Part shown: piece by piece, positions 1,243 to 20,396 of the stretch | How the letters are laid out: the number at the start of each line of letters is the position of its first letter | Position numbering within the stretch: position 1 is the stretch's first letter | DNA from: Escherichia virus TH16 | Length of the DNA stretch: 40,612 nucleotides | Direction: 5' to 3' (one strand) | Sequence record: MT446393.1 | Made by a program: the position numbers and the translations under genes | The notes under the pieces: model-generated | Databases searched by the model: none | What the model was told of the DNA's origin: nothing | What the model saw: only the letters and a program-made list of their open reading frames with translations

Positions 1243-3924
1243 TTAAGCGAATGCAAAGTCTGAAGACAAGATGTCTTCGATATTCAGTTTACCTTTCTTC
1301 GGAAGCTCAGGCAACTTGTCGCGCTGACTCTCGTGAAGCTGGTATTCGAACTGCTCGTAGAAGTCCAGCAGCACATCGTTGTCGCGGTAGGTCTCGACCA
1401 TCGTCTCACGGACTCCACGGAACAGATACTCAGCGTCAGCCGGGATGGTCCCGAAGCTATCGTGAATCACTGCGAATGACACCACGCCATACTTGCGGTG
1501 CGTGTGGACTACAGTCTTGCGGAGGTGGCTACCATCTTGTGAGTGGACGAAGTTCGGGCTAATGCCTGACTCCTGCTTGTGCTTGTCCAGCTCTTTCTTC
1601 GTGCCTTTGTTGACTGTAGGCTGAAGGTTGAATGACCCTAAGAACATCAGGTTCAAACGTGTGGTATCCTTCTTGCGGTATTCCTGCCAGACCGGGAAAC
1701 CATCAGGTGTGACCCAGTGTACCGGAAGGCAAGGCTTCAGGATTTCGCCAGTCTTCTTGTCCTTCACTTCAGCAGCCAGCAGCTTGGCAGCGCCTTGAAG
1801 CCACTTCATCGCGTCTACCGCAGCAACTACGGTCACACTCACAGCCTCCCAGATCATCTTAGCCATGAAGCGAGACGCTTGGCTTGGCTCAGTGAACATA
1901 GCGCCAGACCCTGAGTCAATCGCTGGCATCACGATGTCCTCGTAAACTTGGTCTGCGAAGCCGTACTCTTTCGACCCGTAGGCCAGAGTCATGACTGAAC
2001 GCTTAGTGACCTTGCGTGACATACCGTAGGTCAGCCACTGACGGGCCAGCTCGCGTGTCCCCAGCTTGATACGCTCGGTAATCTCACCAGTTTTCTTGTC
2101 CTCGTGAGTCACCATCTCGTTGTCCGTACCGTTAACCAGCAGGACTTTAAGCTCCTCCTCAATTCGATCAGACACGATGCGGTAGATGTCTTGAACCTTA
2201 CCGGATGGCGTTAGGTTTACTGCATGTCCACCGATGTGGTCACGAAGCATCGCGCTGAAGTGCTGAATCCCAGAGCAGGACCCATCGAACGCTATCGGCA
2301 GCGAGCAGGAGTAAGACAGGCCGTGGTGCATTACGCCAGCATACTCGAAGCAGAACGCGAGGAAGCAGAACGGAGAGTCTACCTTACCCCACCACTCAAT
2401 GCTGTCCATCGGTGCCTTAGCAGCAGCCATGATGTTAGCGTGGTTGTCTTCCACCCACTTGATGCGCTCCTCGAAGGTGACTTTATCGACACCCGCACAG
2501 TTTGCACCGTGGACCTTCAGCCATTTAAAACCATCAGCACCAATAGGCTTGCCGACTGCCAGAGTCAGGAGACCCTTCTGCATGTCGTTACCCTGAGGGT
2601 TGAACATCGGTACAGCGTAGACGCGACCCCGCCAATCCATGTTGTATGGAAACCAGATGGCCTTGAACTGAGAGAACTTGTTCGCTTGGTTGACGATAAA
2701 GCTCAGTGACAATCTGCGTGACTGTCTGGCCTTCTCGCGGCGATAGATACCAGCAGCAGCCTTCTTCCATGCCTTGAGTTCTTCTTCAGTCTCACCCGCA
2801 TAGTCCTCAGGCTTCAGTGGTTCCATCTGAGGGATGTCATCAATAGGCGTGTTGTTCAGCTTCTCGACCATGTTCACCACGTCCAGAACCTTCTTGTTAA
2901 CTTTCCAAGGTGTATTCTGGATGATGTTCACAGCGTCATAGACTTCAGGCATGTACACGTCTTCGTAACGTGCTGCCGCAGACTTGGAACCTAAGCGAAT
3001 CAGCGGCAATGGTCTGCGACCTTTGGCCCAATACCCACCTCCTACGACACCAGTCCACGGCTTAGGTGGAACTACGCAAGGTTGATAGACTGGCGCGATA
3101 CCCGCAAGGCTGAAGCCACGTTGTGCCATCTTCTTGACCCAGAATTCTGACAGGTGGACCATCTCTACATCAGCCGCTGCATTGCCAGCACCATAACGCT
3201 TAAGCTCGACCAATTGTGTTGACTGGATGACAATCTCAAGCATCTTGATGCCAACGTGTACCGCCTCGGTAGGACTCCAAGTCCCCCACGCATCTTCCAG
3301 TTGACCTTGCTCCAGCATGGAGGCCTCAACCGCTTGCATGTAGGCTTTCTTGTAGGATGCCCCGGCTCGCTTGTTCAGGTTCTCAGCTATCGCCTTTTTG
3401 AAGTGCTCCTTCTCCTGATCACGGATTCGACCGAAGCGGATTTCATCCTCAAGTGTGCGACCTATCGCGGAGGCCATCGGTGTAATCGGTATCCCTTCAG
3501 GCTTGACCAGCTTGGAGAGAATGACCTTCAGTATGATAACCGCAGCAGACTCACAGGAGATGCGCATAGAGCGGTCCTTGACGGCCTTCTCTTCAGTGCT
3601 CAACATGGTGAACGCTACGCTAGGACGAGAGGTTGACAGCTTCCCGTCTTGACCTTCATGCCACTCCTTTACGGCTTGCGCAATCTTAGGGACCAGAGTC
3701 TGCATCAAAGGTTTGGCGACCTGATTGTCTGCCAGTTCCCCGCGCTCAGTCTGTCGCTCAAGGTTCTTGATGAAACGTCGCTCGCCTTCAGTGTATGCCT
3801 CATGCTCAAGCTGAAGCTGTTTGACTGCAAGGTCCTGCCCGTAGTGGTCAGCCAGCAGGTTAAACGGCTCAATGGCGTTTGACACATCAGAGAAGTCGTG
3901 TTTGTCAATAGAGATGACGCTCAT
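1243..3924 (-). CDS. gp1: Single-subunit DNA-dependent RNA polymerase (893 aa)
   Basis: Clear similarity to T7/T3 RNAP along the whole length (e.g. FPYNMDWRGRVYAV, ESGISPNFVHSQDGSHLRKTVV, C-terminal FAFA). Confidence 0.97.
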   Translation of the reverse strand: MSVISIDKHDFSDVSNAIEPFNLLADHYGQDLAVKQLQLEHEAYTEGERRFIKNLERQTERGELADNQVAKPLMQTLVPKIAQAVKEWHEGQDGKLSTSRPSVAFTMLSTEEKAVKDRSMRISCESAAVIILKVILSKLVKPEGIPITPMASAIGRTLEDEIRFGRIRDQEKEHFKKAIAENLNKRAGASYKKAYMQAVEASMLEQGQLEDAWGTWSPTEAVHVGIKMLEIVIQSTQLVELKRYGAGNAAADVEMVHLSEFWVKKMAQRGFSLAGIAPVYQPCVVPPKPWTGVVGGGYWAKGRRPLPLIRLGSKSAAARYEDVYMPEVYDAVNIIQNTPWKVNKKVLDVVNMVEKLNNTPIDDIPQMEPLKPEDYAGETEEELKAWKKAAAGIYRREKARQSRRLSLSFIVNQANKFSQFKAIWFPYNMDWRGRVYAVPMFNPQGNDMQKGLLTLAVGKPIGADGFKWLKVHGANCAGVDKVTFEERIKWVEDNHANIMAAAKAPMDSIEWWGKVDSPFCFLAFCFEYAGVMHHGLSYSCSLPIAFDGSCSGIQHFSAMLRDHIGGHAVNLTPSGKVQDIYRIVSDRIEEELKVLLVNGTDNEMVTHEDKKTGEITERIKLGTRELARQWLTYGMSRKVTKRSVMTLAYGSKEYGFADQVYEDIVMPAIDSGSGAMFTEPSQASRFMAKMIWEAVSVTVVAAVDAMKWLQGAAKLLAAEVKDKKTGEILKPCLPVHWVTPDGFPVWQEYRKKDTTRLNLMFLGSFNLQPTVNKGTKKELDKHKQESGISPNFVHSQDGSHLRKTVVHTHRKYGVVSFAVIHDSFGTIPADAEYLFRGVRETMVETYRDNDVLLDFYEQFEYQLHESQRDKLPELPKKGKLNIEDILSSDFAFA

Positions 3925-3993
3925 ACTTAAAGTCCTTGTTATTAGTCTTTCACTTAAAGTCTCTTCGGTCTTTCACTTGGAGTCTTAGACCTT

Positions 3994-4016
3994 GAGTCCT
4001 ATAGTGATAATTAAGT
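3994..4016 (-). promoter_or_regulatory. Degenerate phage-promoter-like site upstream of the RNAP gene
   Basis: Minus-strand ACTTAATTATCACTATAGGACTC; mismatches at -14, -11 and +3 to +6. Confidence 0.35.
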
Positions 4017-4021
4017 CAGGA

Positions 4022-4282
4022 TTACTTGCATATCAGCGGGTTAGCGTGGAGATGACTGAAGCCACCGTTGGTAGTGTGCTTGATTGTTGACCGTTGGTCT
4101 ATCGCCTTCCAGCCTGAGACCAGAAGTTTACCATCATCGGTGATTGGTCGTCCACCATACGCCAGACACACCAGCTCGGACTTATGGCCCTCTGCTCTCA
4201 GGCGGCGCTGGAGGAACATATCGCGCTGTACTTGCTCCATGCGGCTACGGCTTGATGATTTATGAGTGTATACGGTTTTCAT
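4022..4282 (-). CDS. Hypothetical early protein (86 aa)
   Basis: ATG start; stop overlaps the start of the upstream gene by 1 nt (TAATG). Confidence 0.5.
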   Translation of the reverse strand: MKTVYTHKSSSRSRMEQVQRDMFLQRRLRAEGHKSELVCLAYGGRPITDDGKLLVSGWKAIDQRSTIKHTTNGGFSHLHANPLICK

Positions 4283-4479
4283 TACAGTTTGCTCCCAAGA
4301 GTTGCGATGTCCCAGACGTTCGCTAAGTTGCGCATGAATCGTCCGTTAGGTTGACGTACAGTCCAGCGACCCAGACGTACATAGTTGAATTTGTAGACTT
4401 TACACGCCTTGTTGATGTCTCTCACCAGCACGTAGGCGATAAGTACATAGCCTATGGCTATCAATAGTGCAGATATCAT
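4282..4479 (-). CDS. Hypothetical early protein with an N-terminal hydrophobic helix (65 aa)
   Basis: ATG start; MISALLIAIGYVLIAYVLV hydrophobic N-terminus. Confidence 0.5.
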   Translation of the reverse strand: MISALLIAIGYVLIAYVLVRDINKACKVYKFNYVRLGRWTVRQPNGRFMRNLANVWDIATLGSKL

Positions 4480-4565
4480 AGCGATTTCCGTTTAATACAA
4501 TCGTATATCCCATAACCTATCATCCAGATAACTGGCGCTAGGCATACCCAATATCCCACACTCAT
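4476..4565 (-). CDS. Small hydrophobic peptide ORF (29 aa), not in the ORF track
   Basis: AGGAG RBS 6 nt upstream of ATG; stop overlaps the next ATG (ATGA); MSVGYWVCLAPVIWMIGYGIYDCIKRKSL. Confidence 0.3.
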   Translation of the reverse strand: MSVGYWVCLAPVIWMIGYGIYDCIKRKSL

Positions 4566-4632
4566 AGTTAACTCCTATTAATGCAAGTGGTAATCTTCGA
4601 GGCCACCTATCAGTTAGATGACCTCTCGTCTA

Positions 4633-4782
4633 TCACTCAGCGTGTAAGCTGTCGTGAATACGTTTGCGGCTACCGTAGACCACTTTCAATAGACGCATAG
4701 CCGCATCGTGGTTTAACCGCCCGGTCTTGACCAAAATCCGGGCGTTGGTGACGTGGTGCTGGCAGAGACCATAAGTTACCAT
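4633..4782 (-). CDS. Hypothetical early protein (49 aa from the internal ATG)
   Basis: Track ORF 4633..4827 begins with TTG; ATG at 4782 has a GAGG-type RBS. Confidence 0.4.
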   Translation of the reverse strand: MVTYGLCQHHVTNARILVKTGRLNHDAAMRLLKVVYGSRKRIHDSLHAE

Positions 4783-5300
4783 CTTGATGGCCTCACCTCT
4801 TGCAGCTTGGACACAAGGAAGAAGCAATCCACCAGTATCAACTTGCCATTCACGGCCCGTACATTGCGTGGGCTTATCTCAAACTGAATGTCAGACCCAA
4901 AGTTAGCGCAAGCATCCAGCGCCATCAGTACATCCATCAGACCTTCCCGCACAGTCTCAGTCTCAGACCTGTCGTGTGCAGCTTGGAATATCTCGTACCA
5001 CTTGTGATACAGGTCAGCAGGTCGAGAGAATCTCGGAGACCGTGAGAAGCAATCGCGCAGCACCTGATAGAGTTGCCACTGGTCATCATCTAAATGCGCC
5101 TTGAGTCCTCGTGTTGGTGGCATGTGGTCCATCTCATACGTGCCAACCTCAATCATCTTGACTTCAGGGAACAGTGGAGACTCAGGGAACCATCCCCATG
5201 CCATACACTCCTTTATTGGGTCAGAAGAGACCAGAAGTACACGCTTCCCGCAATCCTTCAGGTAGCACTTAGTGAACGCGCCTTTGCCTATCAGTTTCAT
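4776..5300 (-). CDS. gp0.7: gp0.7-like protein kinase, short form (174 aa) without the long C-terminal region of T7 gp0.7
   Basis: GKGAF glycine-rich segment and weak similarity to the remembered T7 gp0.7 kinase region; position before gene 1. Confidence 0.45.
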   Translation of the reverse strand: MKLIGKGAFTKCYLKDCGKRVLLVSSDPIKECMAWGWFPESPLFPEVKMIEVGTYEMDHMPPTRGLKAHLDDDQWQLYQVLRDCFSRSPRFSRPADLYHKWYEIFQAAHDRSETETVREGLMDVLMALDACANFGSDIQFEISPRNVRAVNGKLILVDCFFLVSKLQEVRPSRW

Positions 5301-5316
5301 GTTGTTATTCCTTGCG

Positions 5317-5505
5317 TTAGAATGGATTAGACCATGTGCTGTACTGGTGGTTGGAAATCATGCCAGACTTGCAGAGACTGTCTGTATAGTCATTCCAATA
5401 CTGCTGTTTAGCTATGTCGTCGCCTCTGAAAGTCTCAGGGAACTCGCGGAAAGTCTCACGACATTCAGCTATCACTTCCGCTTTGGTCATCTTACGATAC
5501 GCCAT
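5317..5505 (-). CDS. Hypothetical early protein (62 aa), second gene of the early operon
   Basis: ATG start with AGGA upstream; preceded by the conserved leader element. Confidence 0.5.
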   Translation of the reverse strand: MAYRKMTKAEVIAECRETFREFPETFRGDDIAKQQYWNDYTDSLCKSGMISNHQYSTWSNPF

Positions 5506-5513
5506 CTTGTTTA

Positions 5514-5573
5514 TCCTATAGTTAGTGACTATCAGTCAGGCCGCTATGAGTCTAACGACCTGTAGTTAATCAC
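5514..5573. repeat. Copy 1 of a ~60-bp duplicated early leader element (contains TGACT-ATC-AGTCA inverted repeat)
   Basis: 21 bp identical to 5764..5784 plus flanking similarity to 5755..5822. Confidence 0.6.
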
Positions 5574-5746
5574 TGGCAATTGAACGCGTGGTCCAGGCAC
5601 ATATTGAACTCTTCCTGCGCAAGCTCGCGGCTATCCCACTCAGTCTTAGACAATCCGTAGATTATCACATGCTTAGTGTGATTCTTACAGTCTTTAGCCG
5701 TATACCAGATTAAGCCAAGATCTTCGTTCATCGCTATGATTTTCAT
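5570..5746 (-). CDS. Hypothetical first early protein (58 aa) in the position of T7 gene 0.3; not in the ORF track
   Basis: ATG with AGGAG RBS; translation MKIIAMNEDLGLIWYTAKDCKNHTKHVIIYGLSKTEWDSRELAQEEFNMCLDHAFNCQ. Confidence 0.5.
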   Translation of the reverse strand: MKIIAMNEDLGLIWYTAKDCKNHTKHVIIYGLSKTEWDSRELAQEEFNMCLDHAFNCQ

Positions 5747-5754
5747 AATGTTAC

Positions 5755-5822
5755 TCCTACTTAAGTTAGTGACTATCAGTCAGGGCCTTCAGATGTAGAC
5801 TCAAAGACCCTGTAGTTAGTCG
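5755..5822. repeat. Copy 2 of the duplicated early leader element
   Basis: See 5514..5573. Confidence 0.6.
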
Positions 5823-5929
5823 CTATCGGCGCACATTAAGAGTTTATCCAGATTGTTAAAGAGCATTCCCTTCAGTCATATGACTTCAGGTAGACCATTT
5901 CAGTGTCGGTCATCACCGTTGTTTCGATG

Positions 5930-5966
5930 TGGTACATACTACTTTAAGTCGTTACTGCTTGTCAAC
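5930..5966 (-). promoter_or_regulatory. Host sigma70-type early promoter (T7 A3-like)
   Basis: Minus-strand TTGACA, 18-nt spacer, TAGTAT; flanks resemble the remembered T7 A2/A3 region. Confidence 0.5.
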
Positions 5967-6064
5967 CACTTTCTGTCATCTGCCTGTTGTTCGTATGACT
6001 TATCAGGCTGTCTACTTGACCGGGATGACCCGGCGTCTTCACTATCCGGTTGTTGCCGTGTCGT

Positions 6065-6107
6065 GTTGACGGAAGTTATTTAGCCATAGTCTAGACCTAT
6101 AGTCAAT
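6065..6107 (-). promoter_or_regulatory. Candidate host sigma70 promoter (T7 A1-like)
   Basis: Minus-strand TTGACT, 17-nt spacer, CTAAAT. Confidence 0.3.
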
Positions 6108-6329
6108 AGGTAATTTGAAATAATATTGATTAAGCTATCGTCGGCCCCATAGTGACTAAGAGGATATAGTCTTTGACTAACATGTATTAGACCTTAAGTC
6201 TATATCTTTGTGTCTATTAACTGTAGGTCTGTGACTGTAAGCTGTGAGTGTCTTATGGTTGTGACTGTAGGTTAGTGAGACTGTAGGTGTATGACGTAAT
6301 GTTATACTATAACACTATACAGATAGAGA

Positions 6330-6502
6330 CTCAGAGACAGACCCATAGTCCCAACCTATCGTCCAACCTCCAGCCATAGCCACTACCTATCGTCGACCTA
6401 ACGTCTTGACCATCGGTCCAACCCTATGATAGACTGGGGTAGGGCCTTTGGTCTGACTTAAAGAGGGCCTATGGGGAGACTTTAGGTTCTTGAACTGTGA
6501 GA
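6330..6502. repeat. Collapsed terminal-repeat region; physical genome left end near 6502 on the minus strand
   Basis: Minus strand from 6502 reads TCTCACAGTTCAAGAACCTAAAGTCTCCCCATAGG..., resembling remembered T7/T3 left ends; repeat extent is an estimate. Confidence 0.45.
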
Positions 6503-6739
6503 TGTGGTCTCAAACTTTTGGTCCAAAACTCATCGTCACTACTGTAGGCCTAAGCCACTGTAGGTCAAGGACCGTAGGTCAGGCGACACTAGGATAGACC
6601 AATAAGTAGGATGACCCTAAGTGAGCTTCTATTAAGGTGTTACCTAAAGTCCTTGACTACAGTAGCTAAGGTCAGTAGAGTAGCGTCAGCTATGAACTGA
6701 CCTTAGGTCTTACGCTCATGAATAGTTACCATGATTGCG

Positions 6740-6898
6740 TTAATTACACTGAGAGACCAGAGAACATACGAGAGTCTCGACCCACCCGACCCACTGACTT
6801 CCAGCAGTAACGCCAGCAGCAAGTAGAACAGCAGCAAGAAACCTGTATGTAGCTCGATTGGTCGCCAGAGCTTTAAGTACAGCTTTGGTCTTTGCCAT
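6740..6898 (-). CDS. gp19.5: gp19.5-like small hydrophobic protein (52 aa), not in the ORF track
   Basis: AGGAGG RBS; position after terminase; translation MAKTKAVLKALATNRATYRFLAAVLLAAGVTAGSQWVGWVETLVCSLVSQCN. Confidence 0.45.
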   Translation of the reverse strand: MAKTKAVLKALATNRATYRFLAAVLLAAGVTAGSQWVGWVETLVCSLVSQCN

Positions 6899-7078
6899 AT
6901 GCTACATACCTCCTGTATCTATGGTCGGTGACTATCTGTATTGGAGGGATTATGATTAATATCACCCTCCTTCCATCGGTGCAAGCCTTAGGTAAGAACT
7001 CGGAGTCTGCCTCCTAAGGTCTTGCATAAAGTCTGCATATGTATATTCACTACAGTAATACTATAAGTAACCGGGGGT

Positions 7079-7101
7079 CTTCCCTATAGTGATAGTTAAG
7101 T
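7079..7101 (-). promoter_or_regulatory. Phage RNAP promoter downstream of terminase, reading toward the genome end (phiOR-like)
   Basis: Minus-strand CTTAACTATCACTATAGGGAAGA. Confidence 0.6.
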
Positions 7102-7195
7102 CCAAACTTCTTGTAAAACAGTAGGTTAGACTGGTAGTAACTATAGGTTACTAACTGCGTATTCATGCAGCTTTCACCTATAGTTATTCATTCAG

Positions 7196-8962
7196 CTAGT
7201 GGAGCGTAACGTATGACCCTAGTCCAAGCTCGTCGTCCGTATCGTTAGTTACCCGGACCCCATTGTCCCAGAACTCAGTGTGGATGGACTCGAAGCCTTT
7301 CCGTGGGTTCTCCATCTGTTCCTCCAGCCACTCCTCAGTGACTTCACGTTCGCCTTTGTTGGCATCCTTCGCCATAGACTCAACGAAGAACTGTACACCG
7401 ATAGCCAGCGCATCAAGTCGGTCATCGTGTGCCAAGGCTCCACGCTCACGAGAGATACGGGTCATCTGGTAGAAGAGAGAGTAGATAGGGTTACGAACAC
7501 CGTCCTTATCAGAGGCCGACTGGTAGTCTTGGACGATAGCAGCAGCGTTAACGATAAGTCGGTGAGACCCCATGATAGGCTCCAGAACGTCACAGATGCG
7601 GAGTTCTTTCTGACCCTTACTCTTCACTTCAGTTACAGCAGCAGGATGGATACGGGCCGCTACAGGCTTGAATAACTCAAGGTACATACCATCACCGAAG
7701 TTACCCTCAATGACGTATTCGTTTACCTTCCACTTACGACCAATCTTAGCCAAGGCTTCTAGCGTAGAGTCCTCATAACCACCACGCATACCTCCAACTT
7801 CCATAGCGAAGATGTAGCCGTTGAGCTGATACAGTACCGCATAGCCAGTTTCATCCTTACCACGACCACTAGGGTCAATGACCAGAATCTTCTGGGTGTA
7901 CGAACTGAAGGCAGAACCTACAGTCTGATACGTGTGGTATGAGTCACCCATGAGTCCAACGTTAGGAACGTCCTCACGCTTGTTCTGAGGGTTTGGCAAC
8001 CATTGGTAGACCATTGGGCTGGACGCTGGGTCCAAGTCCGCTACGATAAGGTCACGGAGCTTCAGAGGGTACTTCTCAGCATCACTCAGGTTCGGGTTAA
8101 GCATGAACTGCAGAGCGAAGCCAGCTTTACCATAGGACAGCTCACGTTCCTTCAGGTCCGTATCATCGAATCGTACCTCATCGGTCGGACGCCAGTAGAA
8201 GGGCTCAGGGTCCTCTTCAAGCTCTGCCTGAAGCATCGGTGCCAGACGGTCGCCGTAAGACTGCCAGTCCTTCCTGTCGCGTGGATAACGAGCCGGCCAG
8301 ATAGTAGTGGTATATCCACGGCCTTCAAGCTCACGATACAGGGTCATCTCGTTCTGAGGAGTACCCAGATAGATGATTGTGCCTCCAGGCTTCAGGATAG
8401 CGTCGAACTCTTTAACAAGCTCTGACAGACGGTCTCGTGCAGCCTGAGTCGCTGAGTTGTTAGGAACCTCCACGTCATCTGCAATCAGGATGTCAGCACG
8501 ACTACCAGTCAACTGACCAGTGATACCAACGGACTTAACCGAAGGTGAGTGGTCTGGCTTGGCTGGCCCAACGTCGAAGCTGATAACCGCATCTCGCTGT
8601 CTCTGCTTAGGTTTGAGTTCCTGAAGCTGAGGCATGAGGTCGATGATTCGCTTGATGAAGATGGAGTTAGCATCTGCTCGTTCCTTTGAGGCCGACACAA
8701 TCATGAACTTCAAGTCTGGGTTGTTCCATAGTTTCCAGACCACGAAACCACAGGTCAGAAACGACTTGCCAATACCACGGAACGCCTGAAGGATGAAGCG
8801 GCGATTATCCCCAGCAGCCAGCTTCTTACACATATCTATCTGGCAGCGGGTTGGAACCGGAAGGCTAAGAGCTTTCCAGAGAACGAAGATGAAGAACACG
8901 AAGTCGTCCCTCATCCTTTGGGTCATTTCTGCCTGTCTTTCAGCGGGTGTTTTCTTAGACAT
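7196..8962 (-). CDS. gp19: Terminase large subunit / DNA maturase B (588 aa)
   Basis: Length and sequence similar to T7 gp19; ATG start and TAG stop checked. Confidence 0.95.
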
Positions 8963-9392
8963 ATAGTCCCTCCAACATTAGGTCCCGGACAGCGATAGCC
9001 TCCTCTAAAGTGGGACGTGTTGTGCGCATATAGGCATTCCCGCGTTTAACCTGAATCCTATAACCATTCTGGTGATGGGTAACGCACTTCACTCCCGTCT
9101 TAGAGTCATAATGGCTACCAGTGTTCCAAGTGTTCTCAGCAGCAGTAACGAGCCGTAAGTTACTTAAGGTGTTATTGCTAGGGTTCCTGTCGATGTGGTC
9201 TATTTGCATACCATGTGGTATAGGACCATTGGTTAGTTCCCATATCACACGATGCGCCCGCTTACTGCCTAGACTTCGTGTCTGTACTATCCAATATCCC
9301 ATCAGACTTAATGTCCCCACAGGCTTTCCAGTCCTAACGGAGCCCAGACCGGATGGACTAGCCGGGTCCACTTTGTAGTAATCACTTAACAC
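8955..9392 (-). CDS. HNH homing endonuclease with a C-terminal AP2-like domain (145 aa)
   Basis: HRVIWEL...[20 protein letters not shown]...EN HNH motif; GTG start with AAGGAGG RBS; paralog of 38895..39377. Confidence 0.8.
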
Positions 9393-20344: not shown

Positions 20345-20373
20345 GAAGTCTCCTTATAACCTTAAGGGCCTAT

Positions 20374-20396
20374 AGTCCCTATAGTGATAGTTAAGG
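20374..20396 (-). promoter_or_regulatory. Phage RNAP promoter (phi13-like)
   Basis: Minus-strand CCTTAACTATCACTATAGGGACT. Confidence 0.7.

Follow-up and report, generated by a model that had tools for sequence, protein, structure and literature searches.

A modular early operon in Escherichia virus TH16 carries a predicted minimal kinase-fold protein in the slot that ocr occupies in sister phages

What stands in the place of ocr in a T7-like phage that has no ocr gene? The question is raised by Escherichia virus TH16 (MT446393.1), whose DNA we analyzed as one stretch of 40,612 nt (hereafter, the window), and in particular by seven small genes at 5746..4022 on its minus strand, here called A58, B62, C174, D49, E29, F65, and G86. 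A preliminary description, made from the letters of the sequence, had placed A58 and B62 (58 and 62 amino acids, aa) where T7 has Ocr and T3 has SAMase, followed by a short kinase-like gene and four more small open reading frames (ORFs), and had proposed the region as the most plausible site of a novel host-takeover or anti-defense function. We found the ocr slot to be filled by C174, alone or together with B62, and not by the two first small proteins. C174 is predicted to adopt a minimal protein-kinase fold, and D49, encoded directly behind it, can with confidence be read as a remote homolog of the T7 FtsZ inhibitor gp0.4. We give about an even chance to the joint reading, in which the region is a modular class I early operon, C174 is an ATP-binding kinase with an anti-defense role in the ocr slot, and D49 binds FtsZ.

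The window is a circularly permuted Kayfunavirus genome with every gene on the minus strand. A megablast search with positions 3900-7200 matched 379 phage records (best identity approximately 92%), and the named matches included Kayfunavirus and phages of Escherichia, Salmonella, Enterobacter, and Cronobacter. The physical left ends of two relatives (L093 and L094) map to window positions 6503 and 6502, approximately 750 nt upstream of A58, while the single-subunit RNA polymerase gene (gene 1; 3924..1243, minus strand) lies directly downstream of the early genes. Because the interval between the left end and gene 1 is the site of the host-transcribed early genes in T7-group phages, 5746..4022 is, by its position in the sequence, the host-transcribed class I early operon of a Kayfunavirus; that the region is an early operon had been stated in the preliminary description. 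The layout is like that of the T7 class I operon (0.3 ocr, 0.4, 0.5, 0.6A/B, 0.7, 1) in its succession of left end, putative host promoters, small genes, and RNA polymerase gene. Also shared are intergenic hairpins, a gp0.4-type gene right behind the 0.3 slot, and, further downstream, a tiny hydrophobic peptide and overlapping small genes. Unlike the T7 operon, it has neither ocr nor gp0.7; its 0.3 slot holds B62 and C174, an additional gene (A58) leads the operon, neither F65 nor G86 is related to T7 0.5, 0.6A, or the shutoff domain of 0.7, and a phage-promoter-like site stands ahead of gene 1.

All of the ORFs described earlier were present on the minus strand, and the seven genes have the marks of real, conserved genes under purifying selection. 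A Shine-Dalgarno-like sequence precedes A58, B62, C174, D49, E29, and G86, and the starts of D49 (at the C174 stop), F65 (ATGA), and G86 (TAATG) overlap the stop of the preceding gene. The dN/dS ratio against relatives was below 1 in all seven cases, with values of 0.04 for B62, 0.11 for C174, 0.13 for E29, 0.20 for G86, 0.33 for F65, 0.35 for D49, and 0.70 for A58 (n = 3 for A58). Except for E29, each protein matched a PHROG family over its full length, and all six families are labelled "unknown function". Scans of the seven proteins against Pfam, NCBIfam, and PADLOC gave zero matches, and a sequence search of the PDB with A58, C174, D49, F65, and G86 gave none. We found no literature on characterized Kayfunavirus early genes, and the supplements of an accessory-gene screen (bioRxiv 2023.04.06.535777) contained none of the early-operon sequences. 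All of the families already occur in many sequenced phages and none is characterized; small uncharacterized early genes are ordinary in every T7-like phage.

By BLAST, nothing in the whole window resembled T7 or K1F-type Ocr or T7 gp0.7, comparison of A58, B62, and C174 with T7 and K1F-type Ocr gave only E values > 0.1, and none of the seven early proteins was similar in sequence to Ocr. No curated anti-restriction model in Pfam or NCBIfam matched A58, B62, or C174, with no SAMase sequence compared directly. That the first two proteins have no resemblance to Ocr was therefore borne out, whereas their assignment to its place was not, as the arrangement of the locus in related phages shows. We compared 20 loci, consisting of the window, three GenBank records, and 16 viral contigs, one of which duplicates a GenBank record, so that 19 distinct phages were covered; the viral contig collection yields only approximately 18 Kayfunavirus early regions, and the ocr matches in the phage collection come from too wide a range of genera to be intersected. 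Among the 19 phages, ocr is present in nine and C174 in eight; L096 and L099 lack the two genes, and no phage has both. From these margins we calculated a probability of 45/75,582 (approximately 6e-4) for zero overlap, a figure that ignores kinship and is indicative only.

The DNA alignment with the ocr-type sister phage vB_EcoP_F locates the exchange precisely. Homology extends from the terminase gene to the start codon of A58. The hairpin segment at 5574..5521 matches the one that precedes ocr in vB_EcoP_F at all 54 nt (100% identity). No homology is left over B62 and C174; it is back at 4783, one base ahead of the D49 start, which puts the breakpoints of the swap at 5521 and 4783. Both ocr and C174 terminate exactly at the D49 start. 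B62 stands in front of C174 in the window and two relatives, C174 comes without B62 in five other phages, and in BUCT788 and GA2A it follows straight after the hairpin. The first position of the operon varies as well: vB_EcoP_F has a different 81-aa gene there, and elsewhere it holds another small gene or is empty. The operon is therefore modular, with A58 in slot 1 and, in slot 2, ocr in about half of the sampled sister phages and B62 with C174 here. Ocr (gp0.3 of T7 and K1F) occupies the same slot, from the conserved hairpin to the gp0.4-type gene, in nine of the 19 sister phages; in contrast to this acidic helical DNA mimic, C174 is a basic-to-neutral protein with a predicted kinase fold. 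The region is a variable accessory hot-spot at which cassettes are swapped with precise breakpoints. To that extent the preliminary description was right. What the first genes of this Kayfunavirus offer is good leads rather than a demonstrated new anti-defense function; two of the leads are concrete, with C174 a candidate replacement of Ocr and D49 a candidate for the FtsZ inhibitor of K1F.

C174 (5300..4776, minus strand; 174 aa) belongs to phrog_11084. A search gave 162 homologs, mostly on phage-sized contigs, and a search of phage records gave 83, approximately 37 of them of Kayfunavirus type; the other phage records include 45-46 kb Klebsiella phages, Dickeya phages, E. coli phage Seurat, Aeromonas and Cellulophaga phages, and approximately 99-kb Pseudomonas syringae phages. 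Records that start at the physical left end keep the family near it (871-1389 in Dickeya phages and 124-639 in Klebsiella phage S16c), and two Dickeya records name the homolog "serine/threonine kinase". The AlphaFold2 model of C174 (pLDDT 95.8, pTM 0.90) has the two-lobed arrangement of kinases, with an N-lobe beta sheet and alphaC helix, a catalytic loop, and a DFG strand pair. It is structurally most similar to protein kinases and, within the viral models, to those of T7 type; a Foldseek search of predicted viral structures returned the "protein kinase" of IME278 (E 7e-5) and A0A7L7SMK1 (E 8e-6), a listed homolog of the T7 kinase, T7K (PMC13645617). On the strength of the model, C174 is a predicted minimal protein-kinase fold, so that the earlier mention of a short kinase-like gene is supported by structure (AlphaFold2, Foldseek) and by no sequence model.

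In the family alignment, residues that resemble those of an active site are strictly conserved. Ten positions (G7, K30, Y78, E141, P144, R145, N146, L154, D158, and F160) are 100% invariant in 133 family sequences, and they map to a GxGxF loop, a K30-E31 pair in a short alphaC-like helix, an F-E-I-S-P-R-N loop, and a D-x-F motif. The Gly-rich loop, G5-K-G7-A-F9-T10, lies between beta1 and beta2 (G7 100%, F9 98%, and G5 96% conserved). We read C174 as a putatively active, atypical, minimal phosphotransferase; the perfect conservation of its metal- and phosphate-binding positions argues against a decayed pseudokinase.

Several observations weigh against this reading. The canonical beta3 lysine is missing: position 24 is Val here and Lys in 38% of the 133 sequences, and position 22, which aligns with the lysine of T7K, is variable, although the invariant K30 beside E31 may substitute for it. 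In the catalytic loop and the D-C-F motif, N146 and D158 are fully invariant, and the position of the catalytic Asp is taken by an invariant Glu (E141). No kinase hidden Markov model (HMM) in Pfam or NCBIfam matched C174 at E values up to 1, and no solved structure in the PDB matched it by sequence. A comparison with the T7 kinase domain by hhalign gave a probability of only 5.8%. The Ser/Thr/Tyr depletion of early proteins that would be the signature of a promiscuous kinase is absent (0.149 vs 0.156 genome-wide). Finally, CHRF_10037 and Dickeya phage Mysterion encode a true T7-type kinase in addition to C174, which speaks against the equivalence of C174 to the T7 kinase.

The relationship of C174 to the T7 kinase is a distant one. 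T7 gp0.7 and its homologs, such as JSS1_004 (PHROG 2828 and 15752), are likewise early phage proteins with a kinase fold. Despite its low probability, the hhalign score of 24.5 exceeded those of all 60 column shuffles (13.9 +/- 2.3, maximum 19.0), and the motifs align colinearly (IGKGAFT with LGNGHFS, FEISPRNV with FDMHSGNI, and LLDCF with ITDPV), giving a common order of GxGxF[ST], F-[DE]-x-x-[SP]-x-N, and D-x-[FV]. These similarities suggest that C174 is very distantly related to gp0.7. Nevertheless, whereas T7K and the CHRF_10037 kinase match phrog_2828, 15752, and 18305, C174 matches only phrog_11084, with no HMM cross-match. It has 174 aa against approximately 240 aa for the T7K kinase domain, with D-C-F in place of D-P-V and Glu where the catalytic Asp would be, and it lacks the beta3 lysine as well as a DNA-binding or shutoff domain. 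By its different PHROG, the missing DPV motif, and the missing shutoff domain, C174 is classed here as no member of the T7K family. C174-like domains were also seen as the C-terminal part of a 1078-aa ORF (L139:1394-4630) and the N-terminal part of a 332-aa ORF (L135:3938-4936), both on metagenomic phage contigs; the remaining parts of these ORFs match no Pfam or PHROG family.

The same residues raise the alternative that C174 is not a protein kinase, and that it is either a phosphotransferase for small molecules, of the APH/choline-kinase type, or a pseudokinase that binds ATP without catalysis and acts on a host target by binding it. The Glu at the catalytic position and the missing conserved beta3 lysine would fit, as would the lack of a substrate-binding C-lobe, since C174 has neither an activation segment nor C-lobe helices and its chain ends 14 residues past the D-C-F motif (F160). 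In addition, the E-I-S-P-R-N loop resembles the D-L-S-P-x-N loops of small-molecule kinases. On the other side, the ten invariant positions, including the metal- and phosphate-binding Asn and Asp, favor catalysis over decay, and the top structural matches are protein kinases, T7-type ones among viral models. A comparably truncated C-lobe is moreover found in the minimal effector kinases NleH1 and OspG, which are similar in size to C174 (160-170 aa) and have no detectable sequence similarity to it. In NleH1, OspG, and the Rio/Bud32-type kinases the core stops soon past the DFG-like motif, without activation segment or GHI helices; these proteins, secreted bacterial effectors or ribosome-biogenesis factors rather than phage early proteins, do retain the beta3 lysine and the catalytic Asp. 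On balance, we think this alternative unlikely.

As for its role, C174 as an atypical phosphotransferase would bind ATP and, in the first few minutes after infection, phosphorylate proteins of the host. In phages with C174 in place of ocr, the enzyme would neutralize restriction or other defense proteins, or other host functions, and its action would parallel the promiscuous phosphorylation by the T7 kinase. The T7 kinase and its Autographiviridae homologs disarm bacterial defenses through pervasive phosphorylation (PMC13645617). An anti-defense role of the early proteins is thus suggested by position and by analogy to the T7 kinase. As a second, much smaller kinase-fold family that alternates with ocr at one exact slot and has spread over many phage groups, C174 is an obvious candidate for such a role; sister phages that differ mainly in the ocr/C174 cassette exist, and a direct comparison is possible. 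In its most far-reaching form, the proposal is that C174 founds a class of minimal phage kinases not described before (174 aa, with Glu as the catalytic base and without a beta3 lysine), which functionally replaces Ocr and shields the incoming DNA by phosphorylating, and so inactivating, restriction or other nucleic-acid-targeting defense proteins. Many unrelated phages would employ the family to this end, among them Kayfunavirus, KP34-like Klebsiella phages, Dickeya Aarhusvirus, and the approximately 99-kb Pseudomonas syringae phages (phiPsa374 group). We regard this form as speculative and improbable as it stands.

Against an anti-defense role it also counts that the exclusivity argument rests on 19 related genomes and that the alternation with ocr could be plain allelic replacement without a shared function. 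This leads to the alternative that C174 is a general host-takeover enzyme, modulating, for example, the transcription or RNA-processing machinery as has classically been proposed for T7 gp0.7, and that it is unrelated to defense and alternates with ocr merely at a shared insertion hot-spot. The conserved linkers around the slot would favor exchange of any cassette, slot 1 varies independently too, and L096 and L099 have neither gene. Across widely differing phages the small ORFs around members of the C174 family are unrelated, and no conserved gene partner emerged from 30 diverse loci. Furthermore, the genome already avoids EcoKI, GATC, and CCWGG sites. Sites of EcoBI (11), EcoAI (7), and EcoR124I (11), on the other hand, are not avoided, which leaves the genome exposed without Ocr, and the exclusion of ocr is strict at one exact position. 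T7-type kinases, moreover, have been reported as mainly anti-defense factors (PMC13645617). A takeover function unrelated to defense is in our view a possibility to be taken seriously, albeit on the unlikely side.

The two small proteins ahead of C174 might still replace Ocr as anti-restriction or anti-defense factors, one or both. A58 (5746..5570, minus strand; 58 aa) enters the cell ahead of all other genes in several Autographiviridae genera and is the fastest evolving of the seven by dN/dS, from the three comparisons mentioned above; both proteins are small and matched no known family, and among the enteric phages sampled B62 is confined to C174-type cassettes. The distribution of the genes speaks otherwise. 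A58 precedes C174 in the window and GA2A, and it precedes ocr in L092; its separate slot and its co-occurrence with ocr indicate an additive gene and not a substitute for Ocr. C174 occurs without A58 or B62 in L001, L086, L091, and L097. B62, for its part, is strongly conserved and widespread in cyanophages and Vibrio phages. Neither the non-specific fold matches of A58 nor the lack of plasmid matches for B62 helps the idea, and we consider it quite improbable that A58 or B62 is the replacement.

A58 belongs to phrog_20418 and is rare, with 13 phage records, 12 clusters, and 26 representatives at 50% identity. It stands at the left end of records that start there, at 698-871 in IME278, 898-1071 in GA2A, and 1179-1352 in PP99. 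Its model consists of three beta strands and a helix (pLDDT 90.7), with a conserved Y-G-L turn and a C-x-x-H in the helix, and a fold search gave non-specific matches only. When all members of the wider A58 and B62 alignments were scanned with Pfam, the only match was a helix-turn-helix from one fused homolog. Two remote relatives of A58 are larger proteins: P0155 (110 aa) has an N-terminal helix-turn-helix domain, and P0143 (769 aa) contains 13 tandem repeats matching the C-terminal helix of A58.

B62 (5505..5317, minus strand; 62 aa), an optional insert ahead of C174, was present among the sampled loci only where C174 is. In its family, phrog_336 (272 phage records), 239 records have less than 60% identity and come mostly from T4-like cyanophages; the 38-kb Prochlorococcus phage MED4-184 and Vibrio phages likewise carry the family, which sits amid small uncharacterized genes. 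This breadth, together with the dN/dS of 0.04, suggests a conserved target and not a host-specific defense. The family ends in an invariant T-W-[S/D]-N-P-F, which is the very C-terminus in 19 of the 20 aligned sequences (loci L140-L159). The Pro-Phe-COOH tip recalls the tails of bacterial SSB and, by this analogy, may be a docking motif; the variant of SH4 (L140), in which the tail is longer by five residues, weakens the idea. A profile match of B62 to designed PPR repeat proteins in the PDB (E 4e-13) was rejected, since the score is that of one 15-residue helix-turn summed over many repeats and no single stretch passed alone; it reflects compositional resemblance and not homology. Plasmid homologs, which anti-defense genes of a leading region would be expected to have, were searched for and not found for B62 or C174.

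The gene behind the exchanged cassette is a different case. D49 (4782..4633, minus strand) overlaps the C174 stop with its ATG, which gives a product of 49 aa and makes the listed TTG start of a 64-aa version unneeded. In a BLAST search against T7 early proteins, D49 weakly matched gp0.4 (37% identity over 41 residues), while BLAST with T7 gp0.4 against the genome did not recover it. Profile comparisons are much clearer. T7 gp0.4 matches phrog_5058 (E 9e-5), and both D49 and gp0.4 match phrog_25044, so that each of the two finds the PHROG of the other. Aligned by hhalign, the D49 and gp0.4 families gave a probability of 96.5% (E 8.7e-10, score 44.7, 41 columns), as compared with a maximum score of 18.9 in 100 column shuffles, a probability of 0.1% for the reversed profile, and probabilities of at most 0.4% for unrelated small families. 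The two proteins are alike in size (49 vs 51 aa) and in position directly behind the 0.3 slot: D49 begins at the C174 stop here and at the ocr stop in K1F-type phages, and T7 gene 0.4 begins at the 0.3 stop. We are thus confident in assigning D49, from profile similarity, as a remote homolog of the FtsZ inhibitor gp0.4.

The residues of gp0.4 that are needed to inhibit FtsZ are V15, V22, W28, M32, L35, and Y39 (PMC13423816). In the hhalign register, D49 keeps five of the six, with V11, V18, M29, L32, and Y36 at the positions of V15, V22, M32, L35, and Y39; W28 is replaced by H25, and a His is found there in the intermediate T7-like homolog of L082 too. The residues of gp0.4 sensed by CapRel-Ebc are altered by contrast: A12, T14, L16, and S19 correspond to Q, H, T, and R in D49, R23 to K, and only K36 is kept. 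If the assignment is true, D49 would be a phage effector that retains its target while altering the surface recognized by immunity. D49 would bind FtsZ and halt cell division, a function that by homology belongs to host takeover and not to anti-defense.

The D49 assignment also bears on phage K1F, in which infection mislocalizes FtsZ and causes filamentation through an unidentified peptide and which has been stated to lack gp0.4 (PMC9372555); T3, Bas67, and Bas68 are likewise listed without gp0.4 homologs (PMC13423816). D49 is present in 17 of the 19 sampled Kayfunavirus phages, and K1F carries an ortholog with 81.6% identity immediately after gene 0.3, which makes it an obvious candidate for the K1F FtsZ inhibitor. 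With D49, the profile and structure searches suggested by the preliminary description led to a relative of known function, and with C174 to a predicted kinase fold; for A58 the fold matches were non-specific, and the sequence searches of the PDB were empty for A58, F65, and G86.

The three remaining genes, counted with D49 as four more small ORFs, turned out to be widely shared rather than novel accessory genes. E29 (4565..4476, minus strand; 29 aa) was under the cut-off of the ORF list and was read directly from the sequence. It is hydrophobic and conserved in 15 of the 20 loci (14 of the 19 distinct phages), its exact sequence is absent from a collection of 15 billion proteins, and it is probably an overlooked gene for a small membrane protein. 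Its position is that of the T7 gp0.5 membrane peptide, and there is no detectable similarity; E29 matched neither a PHROG family nor, by BLAST, any T7 early protein. F65 (4479..4282, minus strand; 65 aa; phrog_2385, 636 phage records) is present in 17 of the 19 phages. By eye, both E29 and F65 have a hydrophobic N-terminal stretch, which in F65 is an N-terminal helix accompanied by a basic tail, and both would be small membrane proteins. F65 is labelled gp0.6 or gp0.6A in EcoDS1 and BA14. As a relative of T7 gp0.6A or gp0.5 it was rejected, with hhalign probabilities of 0.3% against the 0.6A family and 0.2% against the 0.5 family and with different PHROGs, so that these labels appear to be positional. 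G86 (4282..4022, minus strand; 86 aa; phrog_7066, 218 phage records), labelled gp0.38 in EcoDS1, would be a conserved early protein: it is found next to gene 1 in all 20 loci (19 of 19 distinct phages). A comparison of G86 with the T7 gp0.7 shutoff domain by hhalign was negative.

The regulatory elements of the operon are candidates. A candidate sigma-70 promoter similar to T7 A1 (TTGACT, 17 nt, CTAAAT; 6078..6106, minus strand) was recognized by eye and missed by the consensus scan because of its weak -10; its -35 is presumably identical to that of T7 A1. A second promoter-like site (TTGACA, 18 nt, TAGTAT; 5936..5965, minus strand), with 10 of 12 consensus matches, is a plausible candidate by its position approximately 190 nt upstream of the first gene. 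Three hairpins of RNase III type lie ahead of A58 (5767..5825; z -1.65), between slots 1 and 2, ahead of B62 (5526..5572; -18.4 kcal/mol, z -3.1), and ahead of E29 (4585..4638; -21.2 kcal/mol, z -2.6), all on the minus strand. They share one architecture, in which an asymmetric internal loop separates the lower stem from an upper stem of 10-11 bp, and which we take to be that of the T7 RNase III processing sites. Two points weaken this anatomy: sigma-70-like sites are not enriched in the early region (5 found vs 5.6 expected from shuffled sequence), and RNase III cleavage at the hairpins is suggested by shape alone. Within the same non-coding promoter region of vB_EcoP_F (L002:1618-1833, corresponding to approximately 6150..5950 of the window), RefSeq gives a coding sequence named "alpha,alpha-trehalase", which is almost certainly a spurious annotation.

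Promoters of the phage polymerase follow the consensus CTAAACTATCACTATAGG, which recurs throughout the genome. One such site, CTTAATTATCACTATAGG (3998..4015, minus strand), stands downstream of the G86 stop and ahead of the RNA polymerase start and agrees with the consensus from the genome's other ACTATAGG sites at 16 of 18 positions, so that the polymerase may transcribe its own gene again. A further ACTATAGG site at 5522, which falls on the 3' side of a hairpin, was rejected as a phage promoter, with a match at just 12 of the 18 positions and a differing upstream half. Elsewhere in the genome, two tandem ACTATAGG promoter cores stand 9 nt apart (ACTATAGGgACTATAGG; 20369..20385, minus strand).

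Around the early operon, the RNA polymerase gene is followed by genes 1.1 and 1.2 (Pfam), and on the other side lie a gene of the gp19.5 family (6898..6740, minus strand; NCBIfam) and the gene for the terminase large subunit (8962..7196, minus strand). Just upstream of the latter and overlapping it is a gene for a 145-aa HNH endonuclease (8955..9392, minus strand; Pfam HNH_3, E 8.5e-21), probably a homing endonuclease insertion. Several recognition sites are strongly depleted in the genome, namely EcoKI (0 vs 4.9 expected), StySPI (1 vs 9.6), GATC (16 vs 162), and CCWGG (8 vs 82), while the EcoBI, EcoAI, and EcoR124I sites are undepleted at the counts given above. The motifs AGACC (170 vs 98) and CAGCAG (87 vs 31) are enriched.

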